Source: Heteronotia binoei
Taxonomy: Eukaryota
Direction of reading: 5' to 3'
NCBI RefSeq assembly: GCF_032191835.1
Contig: NC_083233.1
Span: 34,720,001-34,784,000 of the forward strand
DNA: 64,000 nt
The translations under genes were made by a program, and so were the position numbers. Below are positions 29,351-64,000 of this stretch, piece by piece (within the stretch, counting starts at the first letter, position 1; every line of letters starts with the position of its first letter). The notes under the pieces are model-generated. The model searched no databases and had not been told where the DNA came from. It worked only from the letters and a program-made list of their open reading frames with translations.

Positions 29351-30888
29351 TGTCAGGCAGGGATGTACAATGGTCAGAGTGGTGGACGAGGATCTGGAAG
29401 ACCCAGGTTGGCATTAGGGTTGCCAGGCCCAGTGCTCCCTCTAAGCTGAGCTAGCCCGCCGTTTTTTAGCCTCTGGCTCACACATTTTTGTCTTGGCTCA
29501 GGAGAAATGGCCCCAGAGCAAACTAATTTATGCAGTAGCCAGATTGCTTGCTTGCAACTTTAATGCCAGTAGCTCACAAAGTAGAAATTTTGCTTGCAAG
29601 ACTCCAAGGCCTAGAGGGAGTATTACCCAGCCTCCCACCTTTGGCAACCAGTGGTAAGGTTGAGGGGGGGTAGGGCTGCTAGAACCAGCTTGGGAGACTC
29701 CTGGAGATTTGGGGGATGGAGTCTGGGGAGGGCAGGTGCCTCAGTGGGGTACAATGCCATAGAGTCCATCCTCCAAAGCATCCCTTTTCTCCAGAGGAAC
29801 CGATCTCTGTAGTCTGGAAATGAGTAATTCCAGGGGATCTCCAGGTCCCACCTGGAGAGTGGCATCTGTAGTTGGAATCACCCCATCCCTCTGCCTTGGA
29901 AGCTCACTGGGGTGACCTAGTCGGGCCTGTCACACTGGCAGCCTAATCCACTTCACAGGGATGCTGTGAAGAGAAAGTGGAGAAAGGGGAAATGTTCTAA
30001 GTCATTTGGGGTCCCCATTGGGGAGGCAAGTGGGATATACAGTTCTAAAGGAAAATAGTTGTGGGGGGGGGGGCGGTAGAGCTTCACATAGCCAGTGTGT
30101 TGGACAAGGACCTGGAAGACCCAGGTGCCAATCCCCACTCTATCCTGAAACTCACTAGGTGACTTTAGTCAAGTAATTTCCTTTCAGCCTGACATGCTTT
30201 ACAGGGTTGTTGTGAAGACAACATTTACTAGGTGAGGGATATGTACACTTGAAGGAAGGGCAGGATAAAAATAAGATTGATAGGAACAAATAGGAAAATA
30301 CACTGAGACGATAGGGGTTTCTTGTAGAGAATTCTTCAAAATTGGATGCCAAGTTGTTTCAGGAAATGCTGTGATAAGCAATGCTATTATCAGCGATGCA
30401 TTGTAAAACTCTGGTAGGTTTGACCAGTGGATGGATGGATGGCCATTCAGTGACTGTAAATTGTCCTTGTATGGCCATTCATCCATTCAGAATCCTTGTA
30501 CATTTCAAAATTATCATCCAGCAGAAACCAGATACTTACACATTTAGAACTTTCTTTCTGTTCTTTCTTTAGATAATTATACCTTTTTTTCCTCCTTGAT
30601 GAGGACCCAAAATAGCTTCCAATAATGTTTTTCCTTCTCCCATTTTATCCTCACAACAACCCTAAGAGGTAGGTTAAACTGAGAGAGGGTGTGTGACTGG
30701 CCCAAAGTGACCTAAGAAGCTTCCATGGCAGATTGGGGAGTCAAACCTGGGTCACTGACATCCTTATCCTACTATCTAATGACTAGAGCATTCTATTTCT
30801 CAAAAATGAGCACCAACAGCGGGAGAAAGTTGAAAGGGGTACATCTGAATTTAGCCTAAACCTCTCATAAACTATCTTTAAGTCACTT

Positions 30889-32247: not shown

Positions 32248-32528
32248 GGTGCCAGTTTGGTGTAGTGGTTATGTGTGTGGACTCTTATCTGGGAGAACCG
32301 GGTTTGATTCCCCACTCCTCCACTTGCACCTGCTGGCATGGCCTTGGGTCAGCCATAGCTCTGGCAGAGGTTGTCCTTGAAAGGGCAGCTGCTGTGAGAG
32401 CCCTCTCCAGCCCCACCCACCTCACAGGGTGTCTGTTGTGGGGGAGGGAGATAAAGGAGATTGTGAGCCGCTCTGAGACTCTTCGGAGTGGAGGGCGGGA
32501 TATAAATCCAATATCTTCTTCTTCTTCA
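32248..32528 (+). mobile_element. Squam3-like SINE, full length
   Basis: Same consensus, with (TCT)n tail. Confidence 0.82.
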
Positions 32529-43829: not shown

Positions 43830-45140
43830 CATTTCCTAGGCAAGCGAAGGCTACGCTTCTGCGCGCACTTGCGCGGGTCTGGGCTCCCTTAGAAGCCTCA
43901 GACTTGGTTTCCGAGCCGGCAGCCGGAAGGCTTGCAATTGTTGTATTCATGCAGAGGATGGAGTTGCGCTTGAGGAGGGCGGGGAAGGGAGAATGAGGTA
44001 GCCGGGGCCGAGCCCGAGGAGGCGAGAGCAGGGCCAGAGAGCACTCGACCTGGAAGTGGCGCCCTCCCTTCCCTTTGGCTCCCCGAGTCATTGAGAGCCA
44101 CCCGGGCAGGCGCGCGGACCCATTGTAGCCGCGCGGACTAGTCCCTCGCGCGGCTCGGCCTGCACCATTCCCGCCTGCCGGAGGGGGGGAGGCGCCGGGC
44201 TCTGCAGCCGCCTGGAGGGACGCCCCGCAGGGGACAGGAGCGGGCGAGGGGCCCTCGGCGGAGCCCTGCCCTGACGCGCCCTGTTGGGAGCCGCGCCGGG
44301 TCTCCGGCTCCAGCCCGCGGCCGGGAAGCGACGGCGTCCCCACCCCGTGTCTCCCCCCTCGCCAGTGCCGCAGTGGCCGGGTCTCTCTCCCCCGCCCTTC
44401 CCCGCCAGTGGAAGAGTGCGCCTCCCGGGCTGAAGAGAAGGGCGAGTTTGCAGCTCGCTCGGCTTCTGGAGGCGGCGGCGGCGGCAAAGGGGCCATGGCG
44501 GCCACCGAGATTGCGCGCCAGGTGGTGAGTGCCGGGCGGGCGGACGGGAGGGAGGGAGGGCGCGCACGGCACCGGGGTGGGCCTCCCTTGGGTGGCTGAG
44601 CTCGGCCATCTCGCCTCCTCCGTCGTCTACCTCGCCAAGGCTGCCGGAGCCGGGGCAGCCTGGCGAGCAAGGGGAGGCGACGGCAGATGATGCCGGCTCT
44701 CCGGCGGGCGAGCGAGAAGGATGAGGCGGGGGGGGGGGGCGCCCGCATGGCTGCTCCGAGGGCGCGGGCGAGGGGCTTCGCCTTGCAGAGCCGGGAGGAG
44801 GAGGGGGGGGATGGGGCAGACGGGGCGATCTTTTCCGCATGGTTTCCGCCGCGCGCGAGGCTGCTGCTGGGAGAGAGCCGCGGGTGGGTTGGTGCGAGCG
44901 GGCTGCCGGCTGCCGAGAGCAGGCGGGCTGCGTTGGAGGTGACTTTCTCGTGTGGGGGGACCCGCAGAGGGAGACATTCGCTCCCTGGTCTGTGTTTTTC
45001 CCTCCCCCAGGCTGGGTGGAGGGGGAGGCGGCTTTCAGGACCCGGCAGAGGGAGGGCTTCGTTGGGGGTGACCCGAGGAAGGCTGTGAATGATGCGCTCG
45101 AAGTGCGGAGGGGGGGGGCCGCGGTGAAGGATGCTGGAGA
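43830..45140. promoter_or_regulatory. CpG island / promoter of SEPTIN6
   Basis: Very GC/CpG-rich block with GC boxes and GGAAG (ETS-like) motifs surrounding the SEPTIN6 start codon. Confidence 0.85.
44495..44524 (+). CDS. SEPTIN6: Septin-6 coding exon 1; exon 2 not found in this window
   Basis: gccATGG Kozak, MAATEIARQV, then donor GTG|GTGAGT. Matches the known MAATDIARQV N-terminus and the synteny. Confidence 0.92.
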
Positions 45141-48100
45141 GCATATAGCATAGAATGTTTGGCGGGTGACTCTTTCCAAAAGGTAGGGTGGGCTTAGGTG
45201 TGGTAGGGAGCAGTGAGATCGAGGCAACTTTTTTTTTTTTGGGGGGGGGGGTTCAGGATACAAATGTGGGGTGGCAAATGATGGGTTTGTCAGACTTCAG
45301 GTGGTCTGTTAGGATGCCCTTAATTTTGTGCTCTGGTTAAACGGTGACTGGGAAATGTTAGTTTCCAGGAGGGAGGACTGGGCTTTATGATTATTATTAT
45401 TTTACTGTTGGTGATAGTCAAGGACCAAAGAATGCACTTTCATAAAGTGCTTTTGGGTTGATTTGGAAACCATGTCCAGACAAATTGATCTCCAGTGTCC
45501 TGCACTTCTCTCTGGATGCTTTTACTCCTGTGTAACATGAGAACACCAAGGCATCTCCCAATATCACACACAAACACACAAAAAAGGGGAGTTTTCGGAA
45601 CTGGAGGAGTGGAAGCTTTTGTCTCTGCACAAGCTCTGAAAGGTCCAGCGCTCACCTGCTCCTTGTCACGTGTGTCTTTCTCTGCTACAATGAAAGAAAG
45701 CTACACAGGCACTTCAGAGGCGAGAGATGGAGCCTTTCCTTTGTGCTCAGAATGAATGGGGAAACCTTACAGCCTCAGGAGCGGGTGAACTCATTGGAGG
45801 TTTCCTGTTTCTTTTGACGAGGAAAAGGATCTCCAGCATTGCTGATCTATCTTAGAGAACAGGGGGCATGTAGTATCAGTACTGTCTGTATGAGTGTGTG
45901 TGTGTTTTAAACCAGGTAGATTTTTGCCTTAAATCAGTGGGTTGCGCTGGGTGTCTCTGGCCAGAGTGAAGCAGTTTCAAGTATTGCAAGGAACCCAAGT
46001 TTTGTTAATTCATCCAGAGATAAACCAAGAATTTCACCTGCTTGGCTGGATAGTTATTTGATTAGTTCCAGAATGTGCGTTTGGCTTCATTTCTATAAAA
46101 AGAATGACATATATTTTGGTTTGAAATGGTGAGACCAGGATTCAAATTCTGGCTTGCAATGTGGATCTCACTGGGAAGGTTTGGACATGCCACTTGTTGC
46201 CTGTCTTAGCTTAGTGGAGTTTTGAAGATGAAAGAGGGGTAACTTCCAAGATGCTGCCTTGAGGTCCTTGAGATAAACACATTTGGCAGACATTCATTTG
46301 CATGCAAGGAAGGGTCACTGGTAGAGCATCCCCTTTGCTTATGTAAGATCCCTGGTTCCCCTTGTGTTGAAATTACGCCAAGCACAAAGGCACTTCCTGG
46401 GATTCTGGACCACTGATACGAGGCAAAATCGCACTACTGGGTCAAGAGGACCAGTGCCTGTAAGGCAGTTTCTTACATATGTTATCAGATTTCTAAACTA
46501 TCAAACCATCTGGTTTTCAAATCAATATGTTTTAATACCAGTTTTAAAGCCCCTCCTCCCTTGAAAAGGAAGCGGTTTCCGAAAGAGGCACTCTGGCTGC
46601 TTTAACAATCCTAAGGGGAAGGGAGCAGGATTTGTGCTGAGTCTTTAATACATCCTTTTGCAGCCTGATGTTCCATTTATAATGGTGGACTTGAATGGCA
46701 TGCAAGAAGAGTGTCTGTATGAATCTAAAATGCAGGAGAACTCTAGAAGGCTTTTGCTAGGATGGCATAGTTTGCCTTCCTTTGATGCTAGAAAAATACA
46801 GGAAATGTGATATGAAGCTATTGGAACTGTTGGCCTTTCATACTTTGTGGTACATTTTCCACAAGTGTAAATTACTTTTTGACATTTAGTGTTTTGCTGA
46901 AATTCAGCTCATTCTGTCTGTGGTCAGTAGAGTGCAGAGCAGCTCTATTGGAGGCCAGCATGGTCTTCCTCCTTCTCCACCCCTCTTGCTGTCCCAGTGC
47001 TTGGCGTACTGCTGGGTGTCCTTGAAAAGGGCCCAAGTATTAACTTCATTTGCACTCAGTGCTTACCTCTGCTTCTGCTAGAAGCAACCACACGTGGCGC
47101 ATTATTTTTATTTAGTTCATTTATATATCACTTTTCTCCCTGTTGTGAACCGCAAGCGGCTTACAACAGTCTCCCCTTCTTCATTGTATAATCACAACAA
47201 CTCTGTGAGGGGAGGTTAGGCTGTGAGTGTGTGAGATCACCCAACAAGTTTTCATGGCAGAGTGGGATTCGAACCTGAGTGTCCCACACCCTAGTCTGGC
47301 ATTCAAACCAGTATGCCATATTGAGGAGTGAGTCCCTGGAGGTTTCAAGACAAGGTGCAGGAGAAGAGTGTTCTGGTCACTGTGCCATATGCCCAGTAGA
47401 ACCACAGTGCAGTACCTGGACAATGTGGAAGGAAAGGAGGTGCTTGCAAAGGCAGCTTCACTCTCTGCATGAAAAATGAGTAGTGCTCCTCTCTCTTCTC
47501 ACGTTGGCAGCATAATTATTTTTTAAAAAATAGATAACACCTTTAAAGGACCCCTGATACAGTAAACATAGCTTTCTCTGATTGTACATCCTTGGGTTTA
47601 TTTAACATGCTTTGGCAACCTTTTATGGATCGTAGCAAGACTCGGTGGCTGCTCCCAGGCAAATGAGAATTAGCTGATTGTTTTGACGTGCGTGGCTTTT
47701 GACAAGCAAGAAGTGTATTTAGCACAAATGGGATGTCTTCATTCTGTGGGAATGACTCATGTTATCTTTCTTGGGCCTGGGCTGGAGAAACTGCACTCCG
47801 TGTAACTGGCCAGTGTAAGAGGTAGAGAGTACTTTATTGTTGCCATGGGAACACTACCCAAAATGGCTTCTCCCAGAGGCAAATGATCCCCGCATCATCT
47901 GTAATGTGTAGGAAAGGGCATCTTGTCACTTGGGCCCACACACTGCAGACATATTTGTGTTGCCAGTGCCTTTTGGGAGGGGTGCGAAACTCATAGTATG
48001 TTGGCTCAGATTTGTATAATAAGTATAAGGAATTTTTTGCCACAGGGGAGGCCATTTTGAGCTGTACCATAATGTGTGCTGCATAATACATGCGGCTCTG

Positions 48101-49364
48101 AAGAGCCAGAGCTGAGCACTACCATGAGATGAGGTGTAACAGCACACTTTGGACAGATTTGGAGCATCACTGAGATCAGCAAAGTGGGTGGTGGCTATGG
48201 CTCCTGGGGCACACTCCACCCAGAAATCCTCTTGTGCGTTGAAATACTGTCTACAGGAGCATGGGAGGATCTTCAGGCACAGTGGGATCTTGGAGGTGAA
48301 TGAGTCTTCCTTTGTATGCAACAGATGTAGTGTACCAACTGTGTATCTTTGAACAGGAGATGCTGGGGACCAAAAGAATGAAACGCTGATGCCTTCATGC
48401 TCTGTTTCTGAGTATCCCAGAGATAAATGGCTGGCTACTATTGGACACAGGATGCTGATCTAGATGGACCTTTGTCTTGACTCTTCTTATATTTTTAATA
48501 GATAAATATGCACACATGGGCTGAAGTGCTCTGGAGGAAAGGTCAAGTGAAACAGCTGACAACTAAAGTGTCTTTTGGAAAGCGCATCCATTCACCCCTC
48601 TAACTGTATCTAAAGTCAGCAGTAACTGACATTGTAATGGCTGGAGCATCAGGTGATCATATGCTTATAGCTGAGCCAAGGATCTTTGTTTTTAAACTAA
48701 TCAATTCCATTAAAATAAACTCAGTAAAGGTGATACGTTGAGTAGTGAAAGAGGAGGGTTTTTTTCCTTGTGTCAACAGAACATGTCGTTTTTTAGTTTA
48801 GAAAGAAACGCTGAAATATGTTGCCCAGTCAAGTGATTATATCTACCTAGATTATTTTATACCAGGAGGAAATCTTCTGTGGTGCTCCACAGGTTACTAT
48901 GTTGCTCCAGAAATTTTGCACGTGCATTCATTTCTACGAATTAACCTGAGTGTTTACTTTTGTGCATGTGTTGGCTCACTTGGAACCTACAGAAGACTGC
49001 ATACACCCTTCTTCTCATGCCCTTTTTTCAAGGGAGACGAGTTATGCTTGGCACCAAAGCATTTTATACAATGCTGCTTGCAGAAGCTGATTTCTCTGTG
49101 CAACATCTTTCTTATGAGATTATAAAAGCAGGTCTAATGGTGTTTTTTTAAGGATCCCATTTTTAAATGGGAGATAGTTCCACAAATGAGGTACCTTTCT
49201 GTGGGTCAGAGGGTGTTGGGTACTTGGTCCTAGATTTGCATGTGAACATGGAGAACAGCATCTTAATAAGAATATGTTCTGGTGTTCTGCTCAGCGAGGA
49301 CTTTGTGAAGTGTATGTATTTGTGCTGCAGAGAAAAGTTTGGAATTTAGTAAGAGGTTAAGCAA

Positions 49365-49674
49365 GGGTCCCCGTGGTGCAGAGTGGTAAAGTAGCAGTAC
49401 TGCAGTACTGTGGTCTGAACTCTCTGCTCACGACCTGAGTTCGATTCTGGTGGAAGCTGGATTCAGGTAGCCGGCCCAAGGTTGACTCAGCCTTCCATCC
49501 TACCGAGGTCAGTAAAATGAGTACCCAGCTTGATGGGGGGAAAGTGTAAGACTGGGGAAGACAATGGCAAACCACCCCATAAAAAGTCTGCCGTGAAAAT
49601 GTTGTGAAAGCAATGTTACCCCAGAGTTGGAAACAACTGGTGCTTGCGCAGGGGACTTTTCCTTTCCTTTTTCC
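49365..49674 (+). mobile_element. Sauria SINE, near full length
   Basis: Head GTGGTGCAGAGTGGTAAAG, B-box GAGTTCGATTC, tail GGGGACTTTTCCTTTCC. Confidence 0.87.
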
Positions 49675-52434
49675 TAAGCCGGAGTAGGGTGCTGCCCTGA
49701 CACCCTGTATTATGGGAAGGGGGTTACCTCAGACTGTTTTATTTTAATTACCTTATCTATAGTCCACCATTCTCACTGAGGCTCAAGGCAGATTATTCAA
49801 AACAATGTAATCAAATAGCCTGAGAGATCTAATAAACAATGCAATAGAGCTAGGACTGCAGATATTAAGAACACTTGATTGTACTATCAGACAAAATATG
49901 TCAAGCAATGCAGAAAATGGAACTATAAACTGTAGAAAACAATGCAGTAAGAGCAGAATAATACAAATTGATAATACAAAATGAATCTGTGAATCTTGCA
50001 GGTGGGGATCATGCTTGCCCATCCCTTCCTTTCCCGTGCAGCAGGCCCCCTCCCCACTGATGTGCCCACCTCAGCAGCCAAGGGTGGGGGAGAGGAGGCT
50101 CCTGTTCTTCCTCTCCCACCCATTCTCAGTGGTTGTCAGGAGTAGGAATGGGCACAAACCTTGTTGTGAACCTAATTTAGAGATGAATATCATTGGTTCA
50201 CAAACTGGAGGTTTGTGCCCATCCCTATGACCACAATCCTCCACGTGGTTTCAGAAGTTTGTGGGGTTCATGTTGGAGAGCAAGAGGGATTGCTGAAATG
50301 TCTTGCATCCATTTCAGCCTCTTAGGTTGAAACAGATGCTAACCATTTCAGCTCTCTCTTGCTTCCAAGCATTCCTTTTAAATGGCTTTTGCAAGTGGGT
50401 GCTGTGCTTCCAAGAGCCTGCTTGCAAAAGCCATTTAAAGGGGACGTTCTCTTTAAACGGTTTTTGCAAGTGGGCACTATGTGTGAGTGAAGTCCAAGCT
50501 TTTGCAAGCCATTTAAAGGGAATAATCCCTTTAAATGGCTTTTGCAAGATCTTCAACCCCTTCCATTCTGCTGGCCTCAGGAAGCCACCACCTGCAGAAT
50601 GGGGGGAGGGAAAATCCTCCCAAACCAGTTGGGCCGTAGGAAGGTTCATGGCTTGTGTGACGTCATGAACTGGGACAAACCTCCATTTCCCTGGTTTGTG
50701 CCCATCCCTAGTCAGGAGACAAAGCACAGACAACTGCTCTCGGTTTTTAAGGATCCCCCCCTCCATGTCCCTCCATTTTTGAGGTTTGGGAGTTTTATGC
50801 AGATTGGGGGGGGGGTTCCCCCAGTTCCAGAGAAAAATCTCAGTCTGGCCTCAATCCGTAGATTTAAGTATCCAGAGCTGGAGCTGTATTGACTTTCAGA
50901 TTTGTTGCTAAAACTTACACAATGGCACAAGCAAAAGCCCCAATTTTCTTTATAGTGGTACTTTTCTGAATCATTGTCATTATGTTGCCTGTTTTATGAT
51001 TAGTCTAAAGTTGCATTATGCTGTTACATGGTAGGATCAGGTCATGAAAATGGCAGCAAAGTTTCAGTAGGTCAAATACCATAAAGCATCAGCCCCACCC
51101 AGATATAGAATGGTTGGATTTATAGCCAGGCCCCTGTGCTGTGCTTTCTGGTCGGTCTCTCTCCTTGCCAAAACCTCTGCTCTGCCCTTCCTGTGATCTT
51201 GCAAAATCCAGGAAAAAGTCTCAACCCTTGAGAATTTCAGCACAGTTTTCTCTTTATTGCTGAGGCAGTCATAAGGATACCTTTATCTCTGTTTCCTGGA
51301 TTGTCTTGAGGAAAATGTTACTGGGAAACTATCCAGGTAGCTTGTCATTTCAGTGCCCTTTGTCAGGGATTTAAAAGAGTATTCAGTAAGAGCAGTTGGG
51401 ATCTGGGAGCTGAAATGGCATAGACTCTTCTGGGATGCCAGAGGGCTGAACAGGCATATAAAGATAATAACAAGAGTCCCAGTGTATGCATTTTGTTTTT
51501 TGCTGGTGGCTAGTGGTGTAGAACCCCTCTCCCCAATCTAATTTCCTCTTTCCATCCTCAGATCAATTTACTGCCTTTAGAAACACCAGGAAAAGAGAAT
51601 GGGAAAACTGAAGCTCCCCTCTGAGTTCAGAAGTTTCATGCAGTCACAGCAAACAGCATATGTGTCCCACCAGGGATGTTTGCCATCACAAAACAGCGTT
51701 TCCCCTTTGTAGAAGTCAGAGGCAGTCAAGAAATACGTTCCTTTCTTCTGATGAAAATTGACCACATTCTAAACTGAGAGATGATCACATACAGAGAGGC
51801 TTGCTCACAGGAAGTGGCATGGGTAGTCTCTTTTCTTGCTTGACAATGAATGGAAAAGTTTTGCCCCAATAAACTCCTAACTTGTTATTTTAGGGTCCTT
51901 TAGCTTTATATATCTTTTTTTTTTAAGCTATGTGGAATTTGTGTGCACCTCTATTTGGAAGAGCCGCTCGCTAGCAGTACTTTTTTTTTTTTTAAGAACA
52001 TTGTGGATCAATCTTACTTTGCAGTTCTCAGTCACTTCAGGGCTGCTGACTTGATGTGTTAGGAATGGCTTCCTGGCCACTTCTGCAAACAGGATGCTGG
52101 CCTAGTTGGAACCCTTGATCTGATGCAGAAAAGCTCTTCCTATTTTTCTTTTCAGTCTTTCCCATAGAATTTAGTGAAGATTGTATTACTGTATGCAATT
52201 AAGAACTTACAGCTCCTGGCTGAAAGCCATTGTTTGGAGGACAGAAATGCATTATGGGCCAAGGGACCTTTGCTTCTCTTTTTAGCTCTATGCTGCTTTG
52301 CTTGCCAGCATTGATTATCTAGTTATGACAGTGCTCAGTTTGAAAGCAGCTTATTGCATCCAAACATCATTTATCTTATGTATCATATGATATTTGTCGA
52401 CCACCTTCTGAGGCTCAGCATTGTTTCTGTATAT

Positions 52435-53007
52435 CAGGGGTGAGGAACCTTTTTTCTGCCAAGGGCCATATGGATATTTATAACATCATTCGCGGGCCAT
52501 AAAAATTATCAACTTAAAAAACAGTGCTCCACCAAGGGAGAATGATTCAGGCTGGGAAAATTAGTGCAAATAATTGTTTTTCTATTGAAGTCATGTGGGG
52601 AGAGCCTGATCTGGCGCGTGTGCATGCACACACACGGCCCACTACCCTAGGCAAATCCATAGGTACATGACTTCTTTGTAAAAAAAGCCCAGTAGCATAT
52701 TAGACCACATCCCCTAATATTAGCATATTAGGCCACACCATCTGGGATAATCAAGTGCAAATTGAACTGTGACAGTATCTTTTCTAGGCCCTGCAGCAAT
52801 TCTGGCTGGCCAGCCAGGCCCCAGGGAGGCTGCCACACAGTACATTTGGGCCCTGTGATCCCTGCCTGGCCTTGGGGAGGCTGCTGCACAGCGTGGCTGG
52901 GCCCCACGATCCTTGCTGGCCAGCCAGGCCCCAGAGGGGCTGCCACATGGCTCGGTTTGGCCCAGAGGGGCTACCACACGGCTCGGGACGGAGGTTCCCC
53001 ACCCCTG
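52435..53007. mobile_element. hAT-type MITE with internal GC-rich ~55-60 bp degenerate tandem units
   Basis: TIRs CAGGGGTGAGGAACC / GGTTCCCCACCCCTG; TSD CTGTATAT/CTGTATAC; repeated GGCCAGCCAGGCCCCAG...GGCTGCCACA units at 52800-52980. Confidence 0.8.
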
Positions 53008-53312
53008 CTGTATACAAAACATCTCTCTCTCTCTTTCTCGCCTGTGAACCGCCAGTCAAGACAACCTGCATGCCATTGGCTGGGTCTACTCCTCTCCCCA
53101 CCCGTTGTTGGCCCCAGGACAGATGAAGATTGGGCCACAGGGGCAGCTGCTAGGCAGTAGCTGGTGCTAGCCAGCCAACTTTGTTTCTGTCAGTAAAATG
53201 CAACCCACCATTTTCAATTTGGTTATCTCACTGAAAGGGACAGGGTGGGAAGAAGGCCCTTTCTGGGCTTCTTTTGGCCTTTGAGGGAGAATTCATTGGG
53301 GCCAGTCCTGAC

Positions 53313-53533
53313 TAGGGCTGCCAGTTCCAGCTTGGTGGGGAATTCCTGGAGATTTTTTGGTAAAGTTTTAGGAGGGTAGGGTTTGAGGAGGGGAGAGGTC
53401 TCAACTGAATATAATGCCATAGAGTCCACCTTCCAAAGCAGTAATTTTCTCCAGGTGGGGAGAGATCTGTTGTCTGGAGTTCAGTTGTGATATCAGGAGA
53501 TCTTCAGGCTCCACCTAAAGGTTGGCTACCCTA
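53313..53533. mobile_element. hAT-Blackjack-like MITE (many decayed copies, e.g. ~310-700, 14735-14940, 29650-29870, 38215-38390, 42800-43000, 59300-59485)
   Basis: TIRs TAGGGCTGCCA / TGGCTACCCTA with a shared body (GCCATAGAGTCCACC...TTTTCTCCAGG). Confidence 0.65.
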
Positions 53534-54907
53534 TGCCTGGCTGCTTTGCTACTATTCAGCAGCAACTCCACCCCCCGCCCCCTGACAGCCAGTATGGCAT
53601 AGGAGTTAGGGCTTCAGAGCAGGCTCTGCCAGATGGAGGTTCTTGCTTTAGAAAATGACTGGGTGATTTTGGACGTCACAGACTTTCAGCCTAACCTACC
53701 TCACAGGGTTCTTGTGCAGATCAAAGAGGGGGAGAGGAGAATGATGTAAGCTGCTTTGGTTTCCCCCACACTGTGGAGAAAGACTTATTTTCCTAGGTCA
53801 AGGCTACAGGGAGCGGGGAAGAGAGGGAAAGCTGAAGTCAGAGAGGCATATAAAAGGAAGAAGATAGGGTTTGGAAATTCCTGGAAATTTGAGGGGTGGA
53901 GCTTGGAGAGGGTGAGGTTTGAGAAGGGTGGGACTTCAGACAGGTACAGTGCCATAGACTCCATCCTCCAAACCAGCCAATTCCTTCTGGGAACCACTGT
54001 TGCCAAGAACTTCCAAGAATCAATTCTCCCACCAGTTTACTGGATACAATTTCAGACCTACCACCACAAAGGAAATGGAATATTTATTTACTTCACGTGT
54101 ATACCTTATCTTTCTTACCAAAGGGACCCAAAGTGGTTTATGTTGTTTTTCTCTCATCTTTTTATCTATCTTGCTTTTATCAATTTATGGTTTTAATTTT
54201 ACTTGTAAGTGTTTTAAATTGTAGTATTTGAATTATCATGTTGTAAGCCGCCCTGAGACACTTCGGTGCGAAGGGCGGGGTATAAATCCCAATATAAATA
54301 AATAAATAAAATAAATAAATCTGTTTTATCCTCACAGCAATCCTGTGAGGTAGATTAGTCTGAGAGTATGTGACGGACCTATGGTTTCCCAGCAAGCTCT
54401 TATGGCATACTGGTGATTCAAACCTGGACCTTCTCATTCAAGACTCTGACCATTTCACCACACTGCTGTTTGCATATGACAACTTTGATACTGATATAGC
54501 TGCTGTCTAAAGTGTGGGATGCATTATCTTAAGAAAGTGACCTTTGTGTAATGAAGTCGCTTTTTTGTACAATGAAGAAAGACCAAAAGACGTGCTTGTT
54601 GATGGTGCTCCAGAGATCAAAAACACAATGAGGTATTATCTTTCTCAGCAGGAACTTCTATAATTGGACTCCTGTAATTGGATATATTTTTCAGTAGGTG
54701 TATCTTGCAACATGCTCTCCTGCTAAAGCATAGAAGCAACACAGATGCATGCTGCTTATTTCTTCATGCAAGGAAGAAGAAACAGACAGAAGAGAGGGAC
54801 TGGAGCAAGGGTCTCCAGTTTTGTTGAGCCTATGACAGCTGGTAGTGGGCACCACTACAAAATGGCTGCCACTGGGGACAGTTACAGAATTTGGATAGGC
54901 TCTAAGC

Positions 54908-55396
54908 CAGGGGTGTCACTCATTTGTCATGAGGGCCAGATTTGACATAAATGAGACCTTGTCAGGCTGGGCCATGTGTGTCATAAAATATAATGCCAGG
55001 TAGCTGAGATATAAACTTTATAAAGGACACAAACACAATTAAAGATGTAAAAAAAATTAAATAAAACATGCTTGAAACATGAGCACTTGTTGGTCTTAAC
55101 GGTGCTTTCTTTGTATCTCTCCCATGTGATCTAGGGAACAGGGCAAAGGAAGCTAAGACTCTTTTCTTCCTTCTCTAGGGAACCAGGAGGGGGAGGATCC
55201 TCAGCCAATAGAAGAGAAGCTTGGCTCAGTAGCTCTGCTGTGTGATTGAGCAAGCCTGGCAAAGCAAGCTGTGATGCAGAAGGAAGCAAGGGAGAGGGAG
55301 AAGGAAGCAGATGACAGCCAGTTGCTGGGGGGGGGGGCTGATAGAAGCCCTTTGGGGGCCTGATTTAGCCGCCAGGCCGCATGTTTGACACTCCTG
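54908..55396. mobile_element. hAT-type MITE (family B)
   Basis: TIRs CAGGGGTGTC / GACACTCCTG; TSD CTCTAAGC/CTCCAAGC. Confidence 0.85.
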
Positions 55397-55419
55397 CTCC
55401 AAGCCAAGTGTTGTCCTAC

Positions 55420-55880
55420 TGTAGCAGGTAAATAACGAAGCCCCACACATTGCTTGGTTTGAAGCGAGGTATTTTACTTTGACATCAAAGTAGAATTTGT
55501 CAGCATAAGCTCAAAATGACTAAGTTAAAATCATCAGCCTTCTCACCATTTTTATTCATCCCCAAAACAAGCAGACAAGCCCCCTCTTATGTAATTCAAA
55601 TGCTCCACCTCCTGCTTTCCTTCCAGTAATTTCTTGTAGTTTCCCCCTGCTCTGTCCCTCTGTGTTATCAGCAAGAAGCTCCTTCTCTGCGGGGCCCCTG
55701 TTATCTTGGATTCACACCCTTAGCCTGTCTGGTTTTAACAGTTTAGCAGAAGCTCCTCTGAAGGGCCTCTTAACAGTCACTCTAAATGTTGCATCAGACA
55801 TTCTCTTTTGAAGGCACAGCCATATTTTCCATTGTTATTATTATTGAGGTATTCATTAATTATTCAGGGATCCCTCTTCA
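55420..55880 (-). mobile_element. 3' LTR (461 bp) of an ERV-like element
   Basis: On the - strand it begins TGAAGAG (55880) and ends CTGCTACA (55420), with AATAAA at 55556-55551. It is immediately preceded by the PPT AAAGGGGGGAA (55891-55881) and is 98.3% identical to 62520-62930. Confidence 0.9.
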
Positions 55881-57049
55881 TTCCCCCCTTTCAGTCTCTG
55901 AAAGTTTATTATTTTTTTTTAAATCTGAAGGAGCCTGACCATCATCATTATTAAACAAATCAATTCTGTATGCCCACTCAAGAAGGGCAGCTAGGTGACA
56001 GTTTGGTTTTCGACATTCACAAAAAAGACTGAAATGACACTACAATGGGGTAATGCAATAGTATATTAACAGAGATGGGGTATAGATGGGTCACGGGAGG
56101 AGAGACAGTGATGGGATTATCCATTCACACTGGCACATCCCAGTATTTTCCATCTTGAGAAGGTGTGTGGGTAGGGAAGAAGGTCACTCAGAGGCATGCC
56201 TTGGCTATGCAGCCCAGCCTTCCAATATGGAGTTTTCCTGGTCTCCATTTTGGGGCCTTTCTGGGCACACAGACTAGCTTGAGAGTGCCCCCCCCTTGTC
56301 TTTTAAGGCTACCCTCTTTATTTGGCAGCATCTGGTATCAATTCCTTCTCTTTGGCACTGTCCAGTCCTTGCAGGGTGTGTGTCACATTTCATGGTGCAT
56401 TGCTGATCAGACTTCAAACAACCAGGGTTGAGACACAGTTGGGACAAAGGAAAAGGGTTTTAGGAATGTCAGTTACCAAAAATAGGCTATGCCTGAGTTA
56501 AAAAATAATCCATTCATGGTATATGCATTAAATAATTACGTCCAGTCTAAATTTGTGAACATAGATCTTGGAAGGATCCTAGAGAACTTATTTCTTTATC
56601 AATAAAACATTATTAGTTATGACGCAAGAACACAAAAACTCATCTCATTTCTAAAACACACAAGAGACATATGCAAATGACATGCTATAAACTGAATCAA
56701 GTCATGTGCCTTTATGGCAAACACCTTGTTGTAGCCTAGGTGATTAAGATACACACATTCAGACATACTTGGAAACATTGCCAGTTGTAGGCAGTCCACA
56801 TTGGCCACATTATTACAATACAAAAACCATTTCGTGACTAATTCCTTATTCCCCTCCTCCCTTAGTCTAACAAAAGGTCTTCTTTCTTGAGTTCATGGAG
56901 AGTTAGCGTGCTGTATGCATGACAATCTTTTCACAGGGAAATCTGTTTCTGTTGCAGCCAAAAGGAATTCCTTTTCCTGGAAGCACAACTTGGAAGTGGC
57001 AGTGGGCTGCTGTTATGATCAGCTGGGGCAACCAGCCTTTTGCTAGGTA

Positions 57050-59210
57050 GAGGAATTTTCCGGGAAATAAGTTTTCTCCACAACTCAATTTGGATGGAAT
57101 TCTCGAGGAGGCCTTCCTTCCAACATCAATAAGGCATGACCAAGAAAATTTCAGGATCTCTAGGTAGATATGGAAGAGCCTGGAAAACATACTTGAAGAA
57201 ACAAACAAATAAAACAATAATAATAGGTGCTTTTTCCCTTTAAAGCTTTCCTTGGCTGTTCACAAATTGCCATAACTTGAGTCCAACCCTGTTGACATAG
57301 GTTTGCATACATTAGCTAAATTACCATACTTGTTTTGGACAGGAGACTTTCTCCTTCTCGCATGGTGTTTCAGTTTGACAAGGTCTCTACCCTTCCAATG
57401 TTAAAGGACAGATTTCATACAACATACATTATGCAGAACACAAATCCACAATATAAACCCATGCATCACTTCTCATGATTCAGACTAGTGCATATCCATA
57501 TAGAAAATGAGCACCTAGTGGTTCATGAGAGGCTTTTTATTTTGTTGCAACAGACATGAATCTAAAAAAGAAACATGAAATTGTGCACACAATTTGGAGC
57601 TCCAAAAAGAGATTACCAGAGTTGAAGTTACCCCTGGATTATGAAAATGGTCACAAAAAAGGGAAGAAGAACTTCAAAAACAAACAAAACAAAACTGAGG
57701 CCTCAATAGAACAATGCCAGCTTTAACATACATGTATGCGAGGGATCAGACCCAAAATGATTAGAGAACTGGATTAGAGAATTTAAACCATTGGACATCA
57801 GTGGTGTGTTCAAGTCCACTGAACTCCATCTTCCTCCATGTCAGCTCATCCAAAATTTGTTCTGTGGGTCTCACGTAGGTGTGAGAGTAGGTTTCATCAA
57901 ACTTTAACAACAAAAATCCTAAAAGCAAATAATAGTTAATCCTTAAACAATTCTTAGCAGACATACCAGTAATTCTTAAAATTACTATATAATAATGAGC
58001 ATGCACTAAACTTGAATTGCAGATCCCAATTTTCTTCATATATATAACAAAACAATCCTGGAAGGCAAATTCTAGTTAATACACCTTGACAAAGAAGGTT
58101 GAAATAACAGAGAGGCAGGAACTTAAAACAAATAAATGGAAATGTGTTATCCAGTAGCAAGCCTGGCCAGGACTGGAGACTGGATTGAAACACAAAATCA
58201 AACAGAATTGGAGCCCTACCATGATAAGAACATGAAACATAGAAAGAATTTTCTGAATAAAACACTCAGAAAAAGTCATGCTCTAACAAGATACTATAGA
58301 TGGAGGCATAAAATATGATAGATAAGCATATAGATGCCTCTTTCCACAAGTAAGAGGTTCACCATATAGCTGAATAGGAAGATTGATATGCACAGTTCAT
58401 AGATGGAATATAACTATAAATGACATCAAGAGAACAATTGAAAATATACATTTTAAGGAATGCAGAACATTATTAAAGTCCAGATTTCCAATGAAGACCA
58501 AGAGTTTTCAGGAATCCTGCCTACTAAATTACTAAGAAATCTAGAAAGGGTATTTCCATAGGAAACATGTCACTGAGAATAACTGGATTGCTGGTACAGC
58601 AAAGTATTAGTTTCTCAAGACTTAAGAAAGAAGGTGCACAGTGAGAGGGCAGTTCCACCCAAGGAAGGGTATAGATGTTCCTCTATAACACGTTATAACT
58701 TCAAATGGAAAGAGGTCTTGTAGAAACCAAAATTTATGAGGCAGAACTTCAAAACACTGCTCTAAACGAAAACTCAGTACCAAAAACCAAAGGAACCCCC
58801 ATATTCAAATGAATGAAAAGTTGGGAAGAAGCCCAAAGTAAGACAGAAAAACTGCCAGATGCAACACCGGAAGACCACATGCTTCTGGCATGAGATGTTC
58901 TTAACAAAAATCCCAAGAGAATAAAATTTCCAAAAGGTTGGATACTGTATTGCTTTAGCAGAATAGATGCTCCATATAAACCCAAGATTACAAATATAAA
59001 CTTCCAACCCTTTGTCCCAGATCAAAAAACTTAACAAGAGATCTGTTAGGTGCACCATTTCTTTAAAGCAAAGGAGATCACAAGCTAAATATCTTATAAA
59101 TATTCCCCTTAAAATTAAAGCTGCACAATCTAAGTACAAGGGAAACTAATAACGGCCACTAGAAAAATATTCTCAGACTCAAAAGGTAAAGCAAAAAAAA
59201 AGAAATAAAT
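57050..59210 (+). mobile_element. Heavily decayed L1-clade LINE ORF2 remnant inside the LTR element
   Basis: A-rich + strand with scattered ORF2-like peptides (KTIIIGAF resembling the EN IIxGDFN motif; YPVASLARTGDWI; CQMQHRKTTCFW), many stops and frameshifts, and an A-rich end near 59190-59205. Confidence 0.6.
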
Positions 59211-60085
59211 TATCAGAGGAATAGCTTCTAATCTAGAAAAACTCTTGCCTCAAGGCAGTTTACAGGCAGGTTCTTTTCTCTGGCAGGGAAAGATTAGCTG
59301 TAAGTGGATGCCAGCTCCAGGCTGGAGATTTCTGAATATCTGAATTAAATTTGAAGATTACAAGGCATGCAGTCCACCCTCCTGGACACTTTCTCTCCCA
59401 GAGGCACTAGCCTTAATGTTCTGGGCATTACATTATAATTTTGGGAGTGATCTCCAGGTTCCACCTGGAGACTGGCACCCTTGCAAAACAGTAATGTTTT
59501 GAGCAAGCCAAGGAGCTTCCAAACTGACTTGCTTATTTTAAAATATACACATCTTCCTTCCAGGCATCTAAAACTACTCATTTTATTTGTGGAGACATTC
59601 TTGCAAAATTTCAAAAGTTTGAATTTGTATCCTTAGACCTAAAACCAGGAGAATATGAGAATTCAGAAAAATATCTCAATTGTGCCTCCCCCCCCCCCTT
59701 TGATACCATGGGGCATATATATAAACACAAGATGGGGAAGGTGATGAGATATCTGCGTGGTATGGGTTCAGGTTTTACACTTCTTATTTTGGCTTAATTT
59801 GGCTAAGTGACTTCTCTTTCCTAAAACAGCTAAAGATTGTCTGCAAATTTTCCTAGCCAAAATCCAGTGAAAGTTGCTAGGACATAAATTCCTTACAAAA
59901 GAGAAAACTTTGACTCTTTGCAAAGATGCTAACAATTCTCTTTTCTGGTTATGGATCTGATTTATATAAAAAAAGACAGGTCTCTTTCTGTAAAGACACC
60001 TGGTTGCTTGTGCCTTCAAGAGGAGAGACTTGAGGTGAAAATTTCTTCTTAATATCTCAGGGCACTGCATTCTAAAAATTATTAT

Positions 60086-60259
60086 TCCTTCCGTAGTCAT
60101 CTACACTTTGCTGGGTAATCATTTTATTGACTTCAGAAGGATGGAAGGCTGAGTCAACCTCGAGCCAGCTACCTGATCCCAGCTTCCACCAGGATTGAAC
60201 TCAGGTCGTGAGCAGAGCTTAGGACTGCAGTACTACAGCTCTAACACTCTGTGCCACGG
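60086..60259 (-). mobile_element. Sauria SINE, partial, inside the LTR element
   Basis: Core GGAAGGCTGAGTCAACCTCGAG and head region. Confidence 0.8.
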
Positions 60260-61710
60260 TGTTCTTGTGGGGGGAGGGCAAGAAGACTGCAAATTTGCAA
60301 TCTTTAACTTCCCTATGCCAGGCTCCAATTTGAGGCTGATTTAGGCACTCTCTGTACATACTCAGAGGCCTTTCCTTGAGCCTGAAATTTATAGAACTAA
60401 AGCAGTAAATATTTAACAAAACTAGTTTAATCTCTCTTTCTCAGAGGATTTGGTTCTGGCATTTTAAAGGTGAAAATAAAGGTACAACTCTCTAAATCTC
60501 TTTCTCAATCATGGCAATAAATTGTATTTATTTAATTTGCATCCTGGCTGCATTTTAAAGGAGCTGAACCTCAGTTCTTTTGGGCTAACTGTAATGCAGT
60601 AGCCATGCACCACTGAATTGTAATACTGAGATAGCTGAATAGCCTTAGCTGGATACACCACGAGGGTCTGGGAGGCATAAAAATAACATAAGTACATTTC
60701 TTTGCCTAGCCTGACCTAGACTTGAGGCTATTTTGCTAAACAGCCTCCTGACATAATTCCATTCGGGGAAACCCTTAGATTCCATCTGGACATTTGAACT
60801 CTGTATGATAATATCTAGTTCTCTGAATTTATGCCCAGTTAGCTAGTTACATTGAATACTCACTAAAACCAATGCTTTCAGGGCCACCGCAATCTGAGCC
60901 AAACTTACCCACTAGCCTTTGGAAGTACCTACTATCAATTAGTGAAAACTGACTTGGGGAACCCCTTGCTGCAGTGGTGTGGCTTGGTTTTCTCTAGAGT
61001 TTTCCTAATAGGCAGAGGCTTGACTAGGGCCTCTGTGCTAAAGGATTTATCCAGTCTGGTGGCAACCTACCTTCCTGGTGTTTCTGGGGGAACTACTAGA
61101 CTTTGGACCTGTGTTGGACTATCAGTTGGCAAGTCTGCTGATGCACCTTGGCCAGACAGGTGGCAGACTTTGTCACACTAACAGAGATCTCATCTTTTGG
61201 GCAAGGCCACATTCTCTACAGTTAATTTTATTTCCTGAATGGGGTTGCCACATCCAGACAGGACAGATTGTTAGAGATCTAAAATGGAAGTCTAAAGAAA
61301 GATGAGATCCCAAGGGAACCAGGCTCTGAGCTCTCACTCACACCAAACTTCCATTACCCTGCAGAGAAAACTAAGTCTGCAGCCTGGAATCTTGTGCTGT
61401 GATTCTAGGAGATCTCCAGGCCTTCCCTTGAGAACTGGCATCATCTAATTTTAATCCAAATCATTGCTCTTCTGTTCTTTTTTTTATTAAAGGGAGAGAG
61501 GTCCTTGCTACCTTACAAAGCCAGGTCTCTCCATTCTAAAAGACATTCAAATCCAAAAGTTAGATTTTTCTTGAAGGGGAGGTTTAGGGACAAAGGAGTC
61601 TTGCCTGCCCATGTGGAACTACCATTCTCTAACATTTCCCAGAATTCTGGTTTCTAAGTTCCCCATGGCACCAAACATTTAGACAAGACAATTCTAGGGA
61701 AAACAGAAAA

Positions 61711-61979
61711 GAAGACATTGGATTTATATTCCACTTTCCACTCAAGAGTCTCAGAGCAGCTCACAATCTCCTTTATCTCCCTCCCCCACAATAAACACCC
61801 TGTGAGGTGGGTAGGGCTGAGAGGGCTCTCCCAGAAGCTGCCCTTTCAAGGACAAGCTCTGTGATAACTATGAATGACCCATAGCCATTCCAGCAGGATC
61901 AAGTGGAGGAGTGGGGAATCAAACCCGGTTCTCCCGGATAAGAGTCTGCACACTTAACCACTACCCCAAACTGGCTCTC
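61711..61979 (-). mobile_element. Squam3-like SINE inside the LTR element, with a 10-bp TSD
   Basis: Flanked by AAACAGAAAA at 61701-61710 and 61980-61989. Confidence 0.85.
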
Positions 61980-62496
61980 AAACAGAAAACAGGAGCTGCC
62001 ATTAAGGGGTCTGGCAGCCAGGGAGCCCTGAGGGTTTACACTCCCTTTCTCTCGTGACCCAGCAAGATCTCCCTACTGGGAACTACACAAGAGAAAATCC
62101 CTCTCACTTAGAGGCTTTCTCTCATTCACACACACACCACAGAAATCCTCCCAGTTCCTAGCCTTTGTGTTTCAGCGCCAGAATGGAGCCTAATGAACAA
62201 GGCTTAAGGGATGATCAGGCCCTTCTTCCCTCCTAAGGAGAGGTAATCCGATTTCCCAAACAATTCATACTCACAAACCTGAAGATCTTCCAATTCCCTA
62301 CACACGTCGGTTCAACCAGGCTCAGGTTCTTGATTGACTGACCGGGCACCCCACCACCACCACCACCACCAAGGCAGAGCGAGCTGGACTCAGTGAAAAA
62401 TGTGACCTTGGCGCCTAGTCCGTTCTTTCTGCCATGAGGGTAGAGGACAGACGGTTATGCAGTCATCCAAGGGAAGGAAAAATCCTTACCTCGTCA

Positions 62497-62514
62497 TTCA
62501 TGGTCAATGCACCA
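62497..62514 (-). other. Primer-binding site, tRNA-Gly-like
   Basis: TGGTGCATTGACCATGAA lies 5 nt after the LTR end and matches 15/18 to the recalled tRNA-Gly(GCC) complement TGGTGCATTGGCCGGGAA. A splice donor GAG|GTAAGG follows at ~62489. Confidence 0.8.
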
Positions 62515-62519
62515 TTTTA

Positions 62520-62929
62520 TGTAGCAGATAAATAACGAAGCCCCACACATTGCTTTGTTTGAAGCGAGGTATTTTACTTTGACATCAAAGTAGAACTTGT
62601 CAGCATAAGCTCAAAATGACTAAGTTAAAATCATCAGCCTTCTGACCATTTTTATTCATCCCCAAAACAAGCAGACAAGCCCCCTCTTATCTAATTCAAA
62701 TGCTCCACCTCCTGCTTTCCTTCCAGTAATTTCTTGTAGTTTTCCCCTGCTCTGTCCCTCTGTGTTATCAGCAAGAAGCTCCTTCTCTGCGGGGCCCCTG
62801 TTATCTTGGATTCACACCCTTAGCCTGTCTGGTTTTAACAGTTTAGCAGAAGCTCCTCTGAAGGGCCTCTTAACAGTCACTCTAAATGTTGCATCAGACA
62901 TTCTCTTTTGAAGGCACAACCATATTTTC

Positions 62930-62930
<1 letters not shown>
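62520..62930 (-). mobile_element. 5' LTR of the same ERV-like element, interrupted by an L2 insertion
   Basis: Gap-free match to 55420-55830 at an offset of exactly 7100 (7 substitutions in 411 nt). The PBS follows on the - strand. Confidence 0.9.

Positions 62931-62986
<56 letters not shown>
62931..62986. repeat. (ATT)n microsatellite = L2 tail
   Basis: About 18 ATT units between the LTR and the L2 3' UTR. Confidence 0.95.
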
Positions 62987-62987
<1 letters not shown>

Positions 62988-64000
62988 TATCCAGGTGGCT
63001 CAGGGCGGCTTACAACATATAAAACTAACATAAAATCTAAAATTAAGCATTAAAATCAACATTTCATAAGTTATAGTTAAAAATCTAAACATTTGTTATA
63101 TACATAGACATTAAAATCACAAAGCGGACCTACAGCTACACTCATCGGTTGCATGTTCAATATTCGATGTTCAGTACTCAGTGCTCTGTGCCGATTAGTT
63201 GTGGGCCAGCCGGAAGAGGGATGTCTTACAGGCCCTGTGGAATTGGGTGAGATCCCGCAGGGCCCTTACCTCTTCCGGCAGCTGGTTCCACCAAGATGGA
63301 GCCATTACGGAGAAGGCCCGGTCTCTTGTAACTTTCAAACGGGCTTCCTTTGGTCCGGGGACGACCAGGAGGTTTTGAGTCCCCGATCTTAGTGCTCGCT
63401 GGGGAACGTGTGGGAAGAGACGGTCCCTCAGATAGGCAGGTCCTAGGCCATATAGGGCTTTAAAGGTAATAACCAGCACCTTGTACCGAACTCGGTAAGA
63501 TATTGGCAGCCAGTGCAGAGCCCGAAGTCCCGGCTGAATGTGCTCCCACCTTGGGAGCCCTAATAACAACCGGGCGGCGGCGTTCTGCACCAGCTGCAAT
63601 TTCCGGGTTCGGCACAGGGGCAGCCCCATGTAGAGGGCATTGCAGTAGTCCAACCTCAAGGTGACCGTAGCATGGATCACCGTTGCTAGATCGTCACGGT
63701 CCAGGAAGGGAGCCAGCTGCCTTGCCCGCCTAAGATAGAAAAATGCGGACTTGGTGGTGGCTGCTATCTGGGCCTCCATTGTTAGTGAAGGCTCCAGAAG
63801 TACCCCCAGGCTCCTGACTCTGTGCGTCGCCGTCAGCGGCGCACCATCAAAACCCGGAAGGGGTATTTCCCTTCCCGGACCCCGACGGCCCAAGCAAAGG
63901 ACCTCTGTCTTCGCCGGGTTTAGCTTCAGCCCGGTCGTCCATAAGCAGATAAAGCTGGGTGTCATCAGCATACTGGTGACAACCCAGCCCGTACCTTCGG
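62931..64000 (-). mobile_element. Young L2-clade LINE 3' end with (TAA)n tail; continues beyond the window
   Basis: Open 258-aa RT C-terminal ORF at 63195..63971 (GLKLNPAKTE, LDYCNALYMGLP, KLQLVQNAAARLL), 3' UTR with a TGTAAGCCGCCCTGAG stem motif, and an (ATT)n tail at 62931-62986. Confidence 0.9.

Follow-up and report, generated by a model that had tools for sequence, protein, structure and literature searches.

A gene-less, gamma-like endogenous retrovirus family with a non-coding interior, likely from the host, in Heteronotia binoei

Most of the interior of the mouse ETn element is non-retroviral, and plants carry LARDs, large non-autonomous long terminal repeat (LTR) elements whose interior does not code for protein. 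LARDs descend from long-LTR Gypsy/Copia elements of plants, whereas the element that we describe here, which lies in a 64,000-nucleotide stretch of the Heteronotia binoei genome (NC_083233.1, 34,720,001-34,784,000; hereafter the window, whose numbering gives our positions), comes from a vertebrate gamma-like retrovirus. According to passages in PMC6466679 and PMC12283350, non-coding ETn descends from coding MusD, which mobilises it and with which it shares its LTR and internal ends. That pair is class II, beta-like, Lys-primed and active today with a known helper, whereas the window family is class I, uses tRNA-Gly and consists of copies that are 2-6% decayed. VL30, as portrayed in passages of PMC4859993 and PMC6466679, has no intact gag, pol or env, makes random 4-bp target-site duplications, is mobilised in trans, mostly has a tRNA-Gly primer binding site (57 of 86) and heterogeneous LTRs of 436-681 bp, and has far fewer full-length copies than solo LTRs and truncated ones. 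The window family has in common with it the class I type, the 4-bp duplications, the Gly primer and the many solo LTRs, and mobilisation in trans is what we infer here. In the account of PMC4859993, VL30 keeps stop-ridden remnants of gag and pol, whereas the window family has no detectable remnant and holds fragments resembling miniature inverted-repeat transposable elements (MITEs) as well as short interspersed elements (SINEs). The family works like VL30 and is not VL30, a likeness drawn from descriptions and not from sequence comparison.

In recKoRV of the koala, a gammaretroviral 5′ LTR and leader and a 3′ end with its LTR surround a foreign PhER interior, a form that arose in many separate recombination events and has spread to many copies (passages in PMC6112702). 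The recKoRV interior is a known older endogenous retrovirus (ERV) with LTRs of its own, whereas that of the window family looks like ordinary host DNA; the window family is also the older of the two and has a ladder of subfamilies. Host RNA captured between the ends of LTR elements has been reported in several animals (passages in PMC5131818); those cases are spliced mRNA copies, whereas the window cargo is non-genic and amplified to more than 100 places. This kind of element is therefore known from mouse (VL30, ETn) and koala (recKoRV), and the present family is a new member. Our literature search returned no description of such a family in lizards; Repbase and Dfam were outside its scope and may hold an internal consensus.

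We conclude that the window element belongs to a gene-less, gamma-like ERV family that has been copied at more than 100 places and, very probably, mobilised in trans, and that its gag-pol-env region has been replaced by ~5.7 kb of non-coding DNA, likely from the host.

A provirus-like unit and its copies

An earlier note on this DNA had described a young LTR pair around older cargo, with a primer binding site by the right LTR and a polypurine tract by the left one, as expected of a single provirus on the minus strand. We reproduced each of these points. The LTRs are spaced 7100 bp apart and mismatch at 7 of 411 ungapped positions (55420-55830), or at 8 of 426 over a longer alignment. The 18-nucleotide primer binding site starts 5 bases past the right LTR and matches the 3′ end of a genomic tRNA-Gly(GCC) gene at 15 of 18 positions. 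The right LTR extends past 62930, where it is interrupted by an (ATT)n tract and a ~1.55-kb long interspersed element (LINE) with a reverse-transcriptase domain. Because CTAC is duplicated on either side of the complete unit, the two LTRs and the interior are one insertion. The unit is a single provirus-like LTR retroelement, with direct TG...CA LTRs, target-site duplication, primer binding site and polypurine tract all present. Its parts are as follows.

55416-55419: CTAC target-site duplication, 4 bp; its second copy lies just outside the window, after the last 5′ LTR piece (L001 2535-2538)
55420-55880, minus strand: 3′ LTR of 461 bp, TG...CA, with a single AATAAA at 55556; a high-copy family, mostly solo LTRs
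55881-55891, minus strand: polypurine tract abutting the left LTR; coding relatives have theirs at the same position
55882-55965, minus strand: retroviral 3′ stub common to gag-pol-env relatives; homology ends at ~55965, the 3′ cargo junction
55966-61661: non-coding cargo in place of gag-pol-env, family-wide and in none of the 17 coding relatives examined
57050-59210, plus strand: A-rich core of unassigned origin (earlier "L1 remnant"), L1-like in composition, no homology detected
59359-59500, plus strand: decayed MITE-like fragment, 67% to the free copy at 29750-29864
60087-60266: remnant of a Sauria-like SINE, truncated in the window copy; site empty in seven copies
61333-61456: second decayed MITE-like fragment, 72% to a free copy
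61662-61710, minus strand: retroviral leader stub past the SINE site; homology to coding relatives ends at ~61662, the 5′ cargo junction in the window lineage
61711-61979, minus strand: Squam3-like SINE in the leader, with a 10-bp duplication, AAACAGAAAA
61980-62496, minus strand: retroviral leader (5′ untranslated region)
62155-62291, minus strand: leader patch, apparently from a gag-bearing subgroup
62497-62514, minus strand: primer binding site
62520-62945, minus strand: main part of the 5′ LTR; its final ~41 bp follow after the LINE and are outside the window (L001 2494-2534)
62931-64000, minus strand: (ATT)n tract and later 5′-truncated LINE (RVT_1) within the 5′ LTR, extending ~490 bp past the window

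The short ATT run of the LTR has expanded to a long microsatellite in several copies (L007, L010, L018; window 62931-62987), and in the window copy a LINE with an ATT-type tail, which from its motifs we take to be L2-like, has inserted into the expanded run.

Our genome searches scored only the best 24-150 places per query, and the loci that we fetched (L numbers) were chosen from those match lists. With the LTR as query there were 1265 first-look candidates, and the best 40, which were scored, were 95-100% identical; the 29 fetched LTR matches without a known interior were all solo LTRs, 26 of them with an exact 4-bp duplication. The whole interior matched at 24 of 24 scored places, on many contigs and at 84-100% per piece. 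In translated searches with two unique cargo segments, the best 150 of 803 and the best 150 of 535 candidates all matched, and the second segment marks ~135 distinct places by eye count, some of them local duplicates. Across 54 fetched family loci, at least 500 bp of non-SINE cargo is retained in 49, at least 70% of it in 31 and at least 90% in 18. An exact 4-bp duplication of its own, together with unrelated flanks, was found for 13 of 16 two-LTR copies, and multiple independent insertions of the gene-less form were thereby seen. The earlier note had proposed that the cargo is older than the insertion and moved with it, and that the interiors at other LTR-pair loci should be compared; that comparison bears the proposal out, since the same interior with the same junctions recurs at many loci with different target duplications.

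The LTR pair of the window copy is 1.9% divergent. Eight sister copies with the same LTR type have pairs that differ by 2.0-2.8% and one by 4.7%, while pairs of older LTR types differ by 2.3-6.3%. Because sister copies show the same divergence, the young look of the window pair reflects the age of the family and not conversion. At a neutral rate of 1-2 changes per 10^9 sites and years, 1.9% would correspond to roughly 5-10 million years.

Several copies are unusual in other respects. In L004 the two LTRs are of different types, one older and the other window-type (oriented 1422-1620 and 8305-8765), likely through recombination between two elements, and six near-identical cargo matches within one megabase (G000:C5, 19.2-20.1 Mb) point to a local array of segmental duplications. 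The SINE-free L060 (oriented 7244-7640) and L061 (6966-7370) have ~400 bp of extra cargo and ~35 bp of extra leader at the 5′ junction, sequence that is in no other fetched locus, and they are likely the earliest form of the family.

Judged by sequence, the element belongs to a class I (gamma-like) ERV lineage, in that Gag_p30 and MLVIN_C occur in relatives that share its LTR, primer binding site and leader, and its target duplication is 4 bp. Among the Gag_p30 loci examined, 40 of 463 candidates, 20 have LTR and leader in common with the element, several with a Gly-type primer binding site. We fetched 17 coding relatives at length, and their natural open reading frames (ORFs) contain Gag_p30, RVT_1, RNase_H, rve, MLVIN_C and a weak match to TLV_coat. 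The homology that links them to the element comprises the LTR, the leader to ~61662 and ~85 bp ahead of the 3′ LTR, and it stops sharply: between ~61662 and ~55965 no sequence is common to the element and these 17 relatives. The relatives' own LTR pairs are 88-92% identical (n=6), which makes them older than the cargo-bearing copies. At 18 loci of other gag families we found no sequence common with the element, and no full LTR pair within the fetched stretches.

Content and origin of the interior

The earlier note had reported no gag, pol or env ORF in the interior, and every search that we made agrees with it. The longest stop-free stretch of the window interior in any frame is 123 codons; Pfam, run on six frames read with X at stops, returned nothing below E 0.17, and a PDB search in three frames and an Rfam search of the interior gave nothing usable. 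Pfam on the SINE-free copy L069 likewise gave nothing usable and no trace of gag, pol or env. A tblastx comparison of the interior with the 17 coding relatives found no match except a shared SINE, and 319 long ORFs from all fetched loci had no match beyond the family's own frames and one SINE. There is no coding capacity in the window copy or the other copies examined, and this is a non-autonomous ERV.

What, then, is the cargo? Two pieces match free copies of decayed MITE-like elements, as the earlier note had claimed. (Its names MITE, Sauria SINE and Squam3 serve us as labels, and do not reflect comparison with consensus sequences.) These fragments differ from their free copies by 28-33%, whereas even the most distant subfamilies are only 8-17% apart in their cargo. 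Because they are further from the free copies than the cargo subfamilies are from each other, we would place them as already old when the family arose. Some 5 kb of the cargo has no match to any repeat in a 0.64-Mb background. We consider the rest of the interior to be captured host DNA with somewhat more confidence than doubt.

The same note had read 57050-59210 as a heavily decayed L1 remnant, and here only the A-richness agrees (39% A, compared with 33-39% in genomic L1 ORF2). We searched this core for ORF2 homology with tblastn, a protein hidden Markov model, nhmmer and two frameshift-aware profile runs, using 13 intact ORF2 sequences and 10 C-terminal halves from this genome, and nothing rose above controls. 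The frameshift-aware score of the core was 16.2 bits, against 17.1 ± 1.5 for shuffles, whereas a held-out L1 family, our positive control, still scored 33-79 bits after 35% simulated decay. The core of nine other copies was also at shuffle level, with one copy reaching 22.6 bits against one of two profiles (controls 14-20). By this calibrated test the L1 identity is unsupported; the core may still be a more distant or more decayed L1 or other LINE. A 62% match of L069 to an L1 flank did not reproduce. The genome itself has many L1 copies with open ORF1 and ORF2 (L031-L050), in at least two deep lineages that are ~30% identical in ORF2.

Passenger SINEs and exchange with coding relatives

The two SINEs have a history of their own. 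Between the leader SINE and the free copy at 32251 there are 28 differences in 271 sites (10.3%), in line with the ~10% estimated earlier for a Squam3-like SINE relative to the copy at 32248. The leader SINE is flanked by its 10-bp duplication, and of 36 family sequences with both flanking probes its site is filled in 32 and empty in 4; the site is also empty in 10 of 17 coding relatives. Squam3B3 of Gekkonidae is described, in passages of PMC7983390, as ~270 nt long with a (CTT)n tail, and the label of the leader SINE comes from these two features, a fit that points to a gecko. The partial Sauria-type SINE noted before is also there: this second SINE (60079-60281) is truncated in the window copy and 79% identical to a free copy, and in other copies it is ~300 bp long with a ~15-bp duplication, its site being filled in 30 and empty in 7.

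We built a tree of the cargo segment 58620-59420 from 37 rows, leaving out loci with less than 80% of the segment, and one branch with support 99/97 splits filled from empty copies. The tree gives no direction; insertion after the origin of the family follows from the target duplications and from the empty site in coding relatives. Each SINE was inserted once in a source copy, and its multiplication from there was retroviral. The SINEs were therefore not captured as part of the cargo block, as the earlier note had supposed, but are later insertions with target duplications of their own and empty sites in other copies.

When subfamilies are compared, LTR and leader diverge two to three times more than cargo, and we attribute this higher divergence to mosaicism, that is, to swaps. 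Within the leader, 25 of 27 informative sites at 62155-62291 side with coding L163 against the cargo copy L075, and both flanks side with L075. A triplet permutation test gave p ≤0.0013 in 36 of 36 related triplets, which are non-independent, and p >0.1 in six of eight controls. In a search made after the permutation and tree results, the patch was 97% identical in gag-bearing L231 and L232, as close as in sister cargo copies (93-98%), while the adjoining leader was 69-70% identical. In five further cargo loci, L234, L243, L247, L249 and L252, which lack the leader SINE, cargo is joined at ~61700 directly to a leader that is 86-92% identical to that of coding L163/L170 over 840-1050 bp. L019 has the beginning of this cargo-leader junction, and L250 has a crossover near 62140. 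As these mosaics show, cargo-bearing lineages appear to have taken leader, or leader and LTR pieces, from a coding subgroup several times, and template switching between co-packaged RNAs would be the simplest cause. Folding of the leader patch was no better than that of shuffles (z 0.89).

Host locus, course of events and meaning

The element lies antisense inside an intron of a septin gene, which is on the plus strand with its first coding exon at 44495..44524 and its GTPase exons ~22 kb past the window end. A region of at least ~38 kb that takes in the septin gene and the element with its LINE-split LTR (window 44358-64000 and beyond) is present twice, 348 kb apart and at 98.8-99.4% identity; the second copy lies at G000:C11 ~35.11-35.16 Mb (L003, L220, L221), and is either a recent segmental duplication or an assembly duplicate. 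L003 is thus a duplicate of the window region and not an independent insertion. Between the two, 10 of 426 positions differ in the left LTR (window 55420-55845, L003 995-1420), 2 in the right LTR and 0.6% in the interior, and the left-LTR differences, mainly C>T and A>G in L003, hint at conversion with another LTR copy. Elsewhere, an intronless septin match at G000:C16:49954119-49954931 covers 274 of the 280 positions in the profile, lies in a 432-codon open frame and is a retrogene candidate, and a hairpin-like element occupies window 2511-2683, with a 79-bp inverted repeat whose arms are 91% complementary and 15 bp apart.

Could the interior have come about in another way? An older LTR element of unrelated origin may have recombined with the gamma-like family, much as PhER did in recKoRV, and the interior would then be what is left of its inside after decay. 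The lineage does recombine with other proviral RNAs, no free-standing donor was found, ~5.7 kb is a proviral length, and raw reads of two labelled organisms cover 55900-58300 deeper, as a second carrier would give. We nevertheless think this origin unlikely, given that Pfam, PDB and tblastx gave no gag, pol or env trace in the window copy or the SINE-free copy, that the long ORFs show only the family's own frames and a SINE, and that all 20 fetched divergent core matches carry other family parts, 14 of them LTR sequence. Alternatively, the interior may never have been captured as a block, an internally deleted provirus having been filled by DNA-level insertions of MITEs, LINE pieces and SINEs before or between rounds of mobilisation. 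Both SINEs did arrive in this way, and many copies carry private later insertions; yet the divergence of the MITE-like fragments from their free copies exceeds not only that between cargo subfamilies but also that between the leader and coding relatives (14-20%), most of the cargo matches no background repeat, and no retroviral coding sequence is left between the two sharp junctions. Gradual filling therefore seems to us distinctly improbable.

We also considered whether the cargo is kept because it is useful to the element or the host, for RNA export or stability, as a small protein or as a regulatory RNA. Its slower change between subfamilies is what this would predict, and on the element strand many copies have a stretch (~56900-57400) without stops for up to ~165 codons, a length that locally shuffled cargo reaches in 1.7% of trials. 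We rejected this stretch as a hidden ORF: its shared changes, 26 synonymous and 73 non-synonymous, are no better than those in the other five frames and form a neutral pattern. Swaps explain the faster change of LTR and leader, and the internally deleted L084 and L080 have both LTRs and a target duplication, with deletions that may postdate insertion. A useful cargo is accordingly very unlikely. The idea that old LTRs around locus-specific old DNA were homogenised by gene conversion, which the earlier note had kept as its alternative, or that two solo LTRs happen to lie 7.1 kb apart, is barely credible. The uneven LTR differences between the duplicates do point to some conversion or uneven mutation, but a single target duplication is shared around the complete unit, the same interior occurs elsewhere with other flanks, and with sister copies matching in LTR-pair divergence conversion is not needed.

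Several observations weigh against our preferred reading, that of a gene-less family with captured host DNA moved by coding relatives. The case for a host origin consists of the two MITE-like fragments and the absent viral homology, and no donor locus of the cargo appeared among the best 24-150 scored places, all of which were filled by family copies. The LTRs of the sampled coding relatives differ from the window LTR by 27-33%, none of them is a coding provirus with a window-type LTR, and none of 11 uncharacterised top leader matches that we fetched resembles a coding provirus. Because no sampled coding provirus has the window-type LTR, the helper of the last wave was not found; the 97%-identical leader patch links one coding subgroup to the young wave, and that subgroup too is without a window-type LTR. 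Two of the eight control triplets also gave low p values (0.003 and 0.017), a tree test on a 147-column patch was compatible with a single group of all SINE-bearing cargo copies (approximately unbiased test, p 0.10), and the mosaics could have arisen by DNA-level conversion between proviruses. Three of the 16 two-LTR copies have no exact duplication at the boundaries used. Eight element-strand AATAAA motifs lie inside the interior, and full-length RNA must read through them. As for RNA, three contig runs of one study contain 19-22% of the element's words; two of these contig runs and two raw-read runs aligned to the element cover 29-30 of 30 bins, mostly at less than 99% identity, with both strands equal, depth low outside the SINEs and no control stretch aligned. 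The read data show that the family occurs under two organism labels, and they hold no evidence for transcription as a unit.

We observed directly the anatomy of the unit, its copies, the history of the SINEs and the mosaics, and from these we infer a course for the capture event, transcription, packaging and helper use. The unit keeps the cis parts of a gag-pol-env family (LTRs, tRNA-Gly primer binding site, leader and polypurine tract), with homology stopping at the two cargo junctions. A template switch onto a host transcript, or deletion followed by read-through, would, probably rather than certainly, have placed host DNA with its old MITE-like fragments between them once. The LTR would drive an LTR-to-LTR RNA that the leader would let a coding relative's Gag package; tRNA-Gly and the polypurine tract would prime reverse transcription, and the helper's integrase would insert the unit with a 4-bp duplication. 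The complete unit was copied to many sites in successive subfamilies, each insertion with its own duplication, and most insertions would later have collapsed to solo LTRs. The two SINEs entered the source lineage afterwards and were copied along, and several cargo-bearing lineages have leader or leader-LTR pieces of the coding subgroup, which they would have taken up through co-packaging. After integration of the window copy, the LINE entered its 5′ LTR and the region was duplicated 348 kb away, or is duplicated in the assembly. Mobilisation in trans, as put forward in the earlier note, is very probable, with packaging and retrotransposition in trans being read from the mosaics.

A more specific version of these events is that a reptile gamma-like retrovirus took up, in a single event, ~5.7 kb of plain host DNA from between genes or from an intron, and that the resulting cargo parasite outlived its source proviruses through repeated leader and LTR swaps with active helpers. 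We regard this version as evenly poised between true and false. If true, it would provide a datable ladder of helper swaps, and two passenger SINEs would have spread to many sites without LINE activity.

The family represents a way in which retroviral machinery multiplies several kilobases of host junk together with SINEs and fragments of old DNA transposons. Such multiplication inflates apparent copy number and confuses both age estimates and repeat annotation, in which an interior of this kind would be listed as separate old repeats flanked by two young LTRs. The family is also a rare natural record of recombination between parasite and helper, in which single and double leader crossovers can be mapped to tens of bases, and the mapped crossovers point to the part of the leader that is likely needed for packaging.

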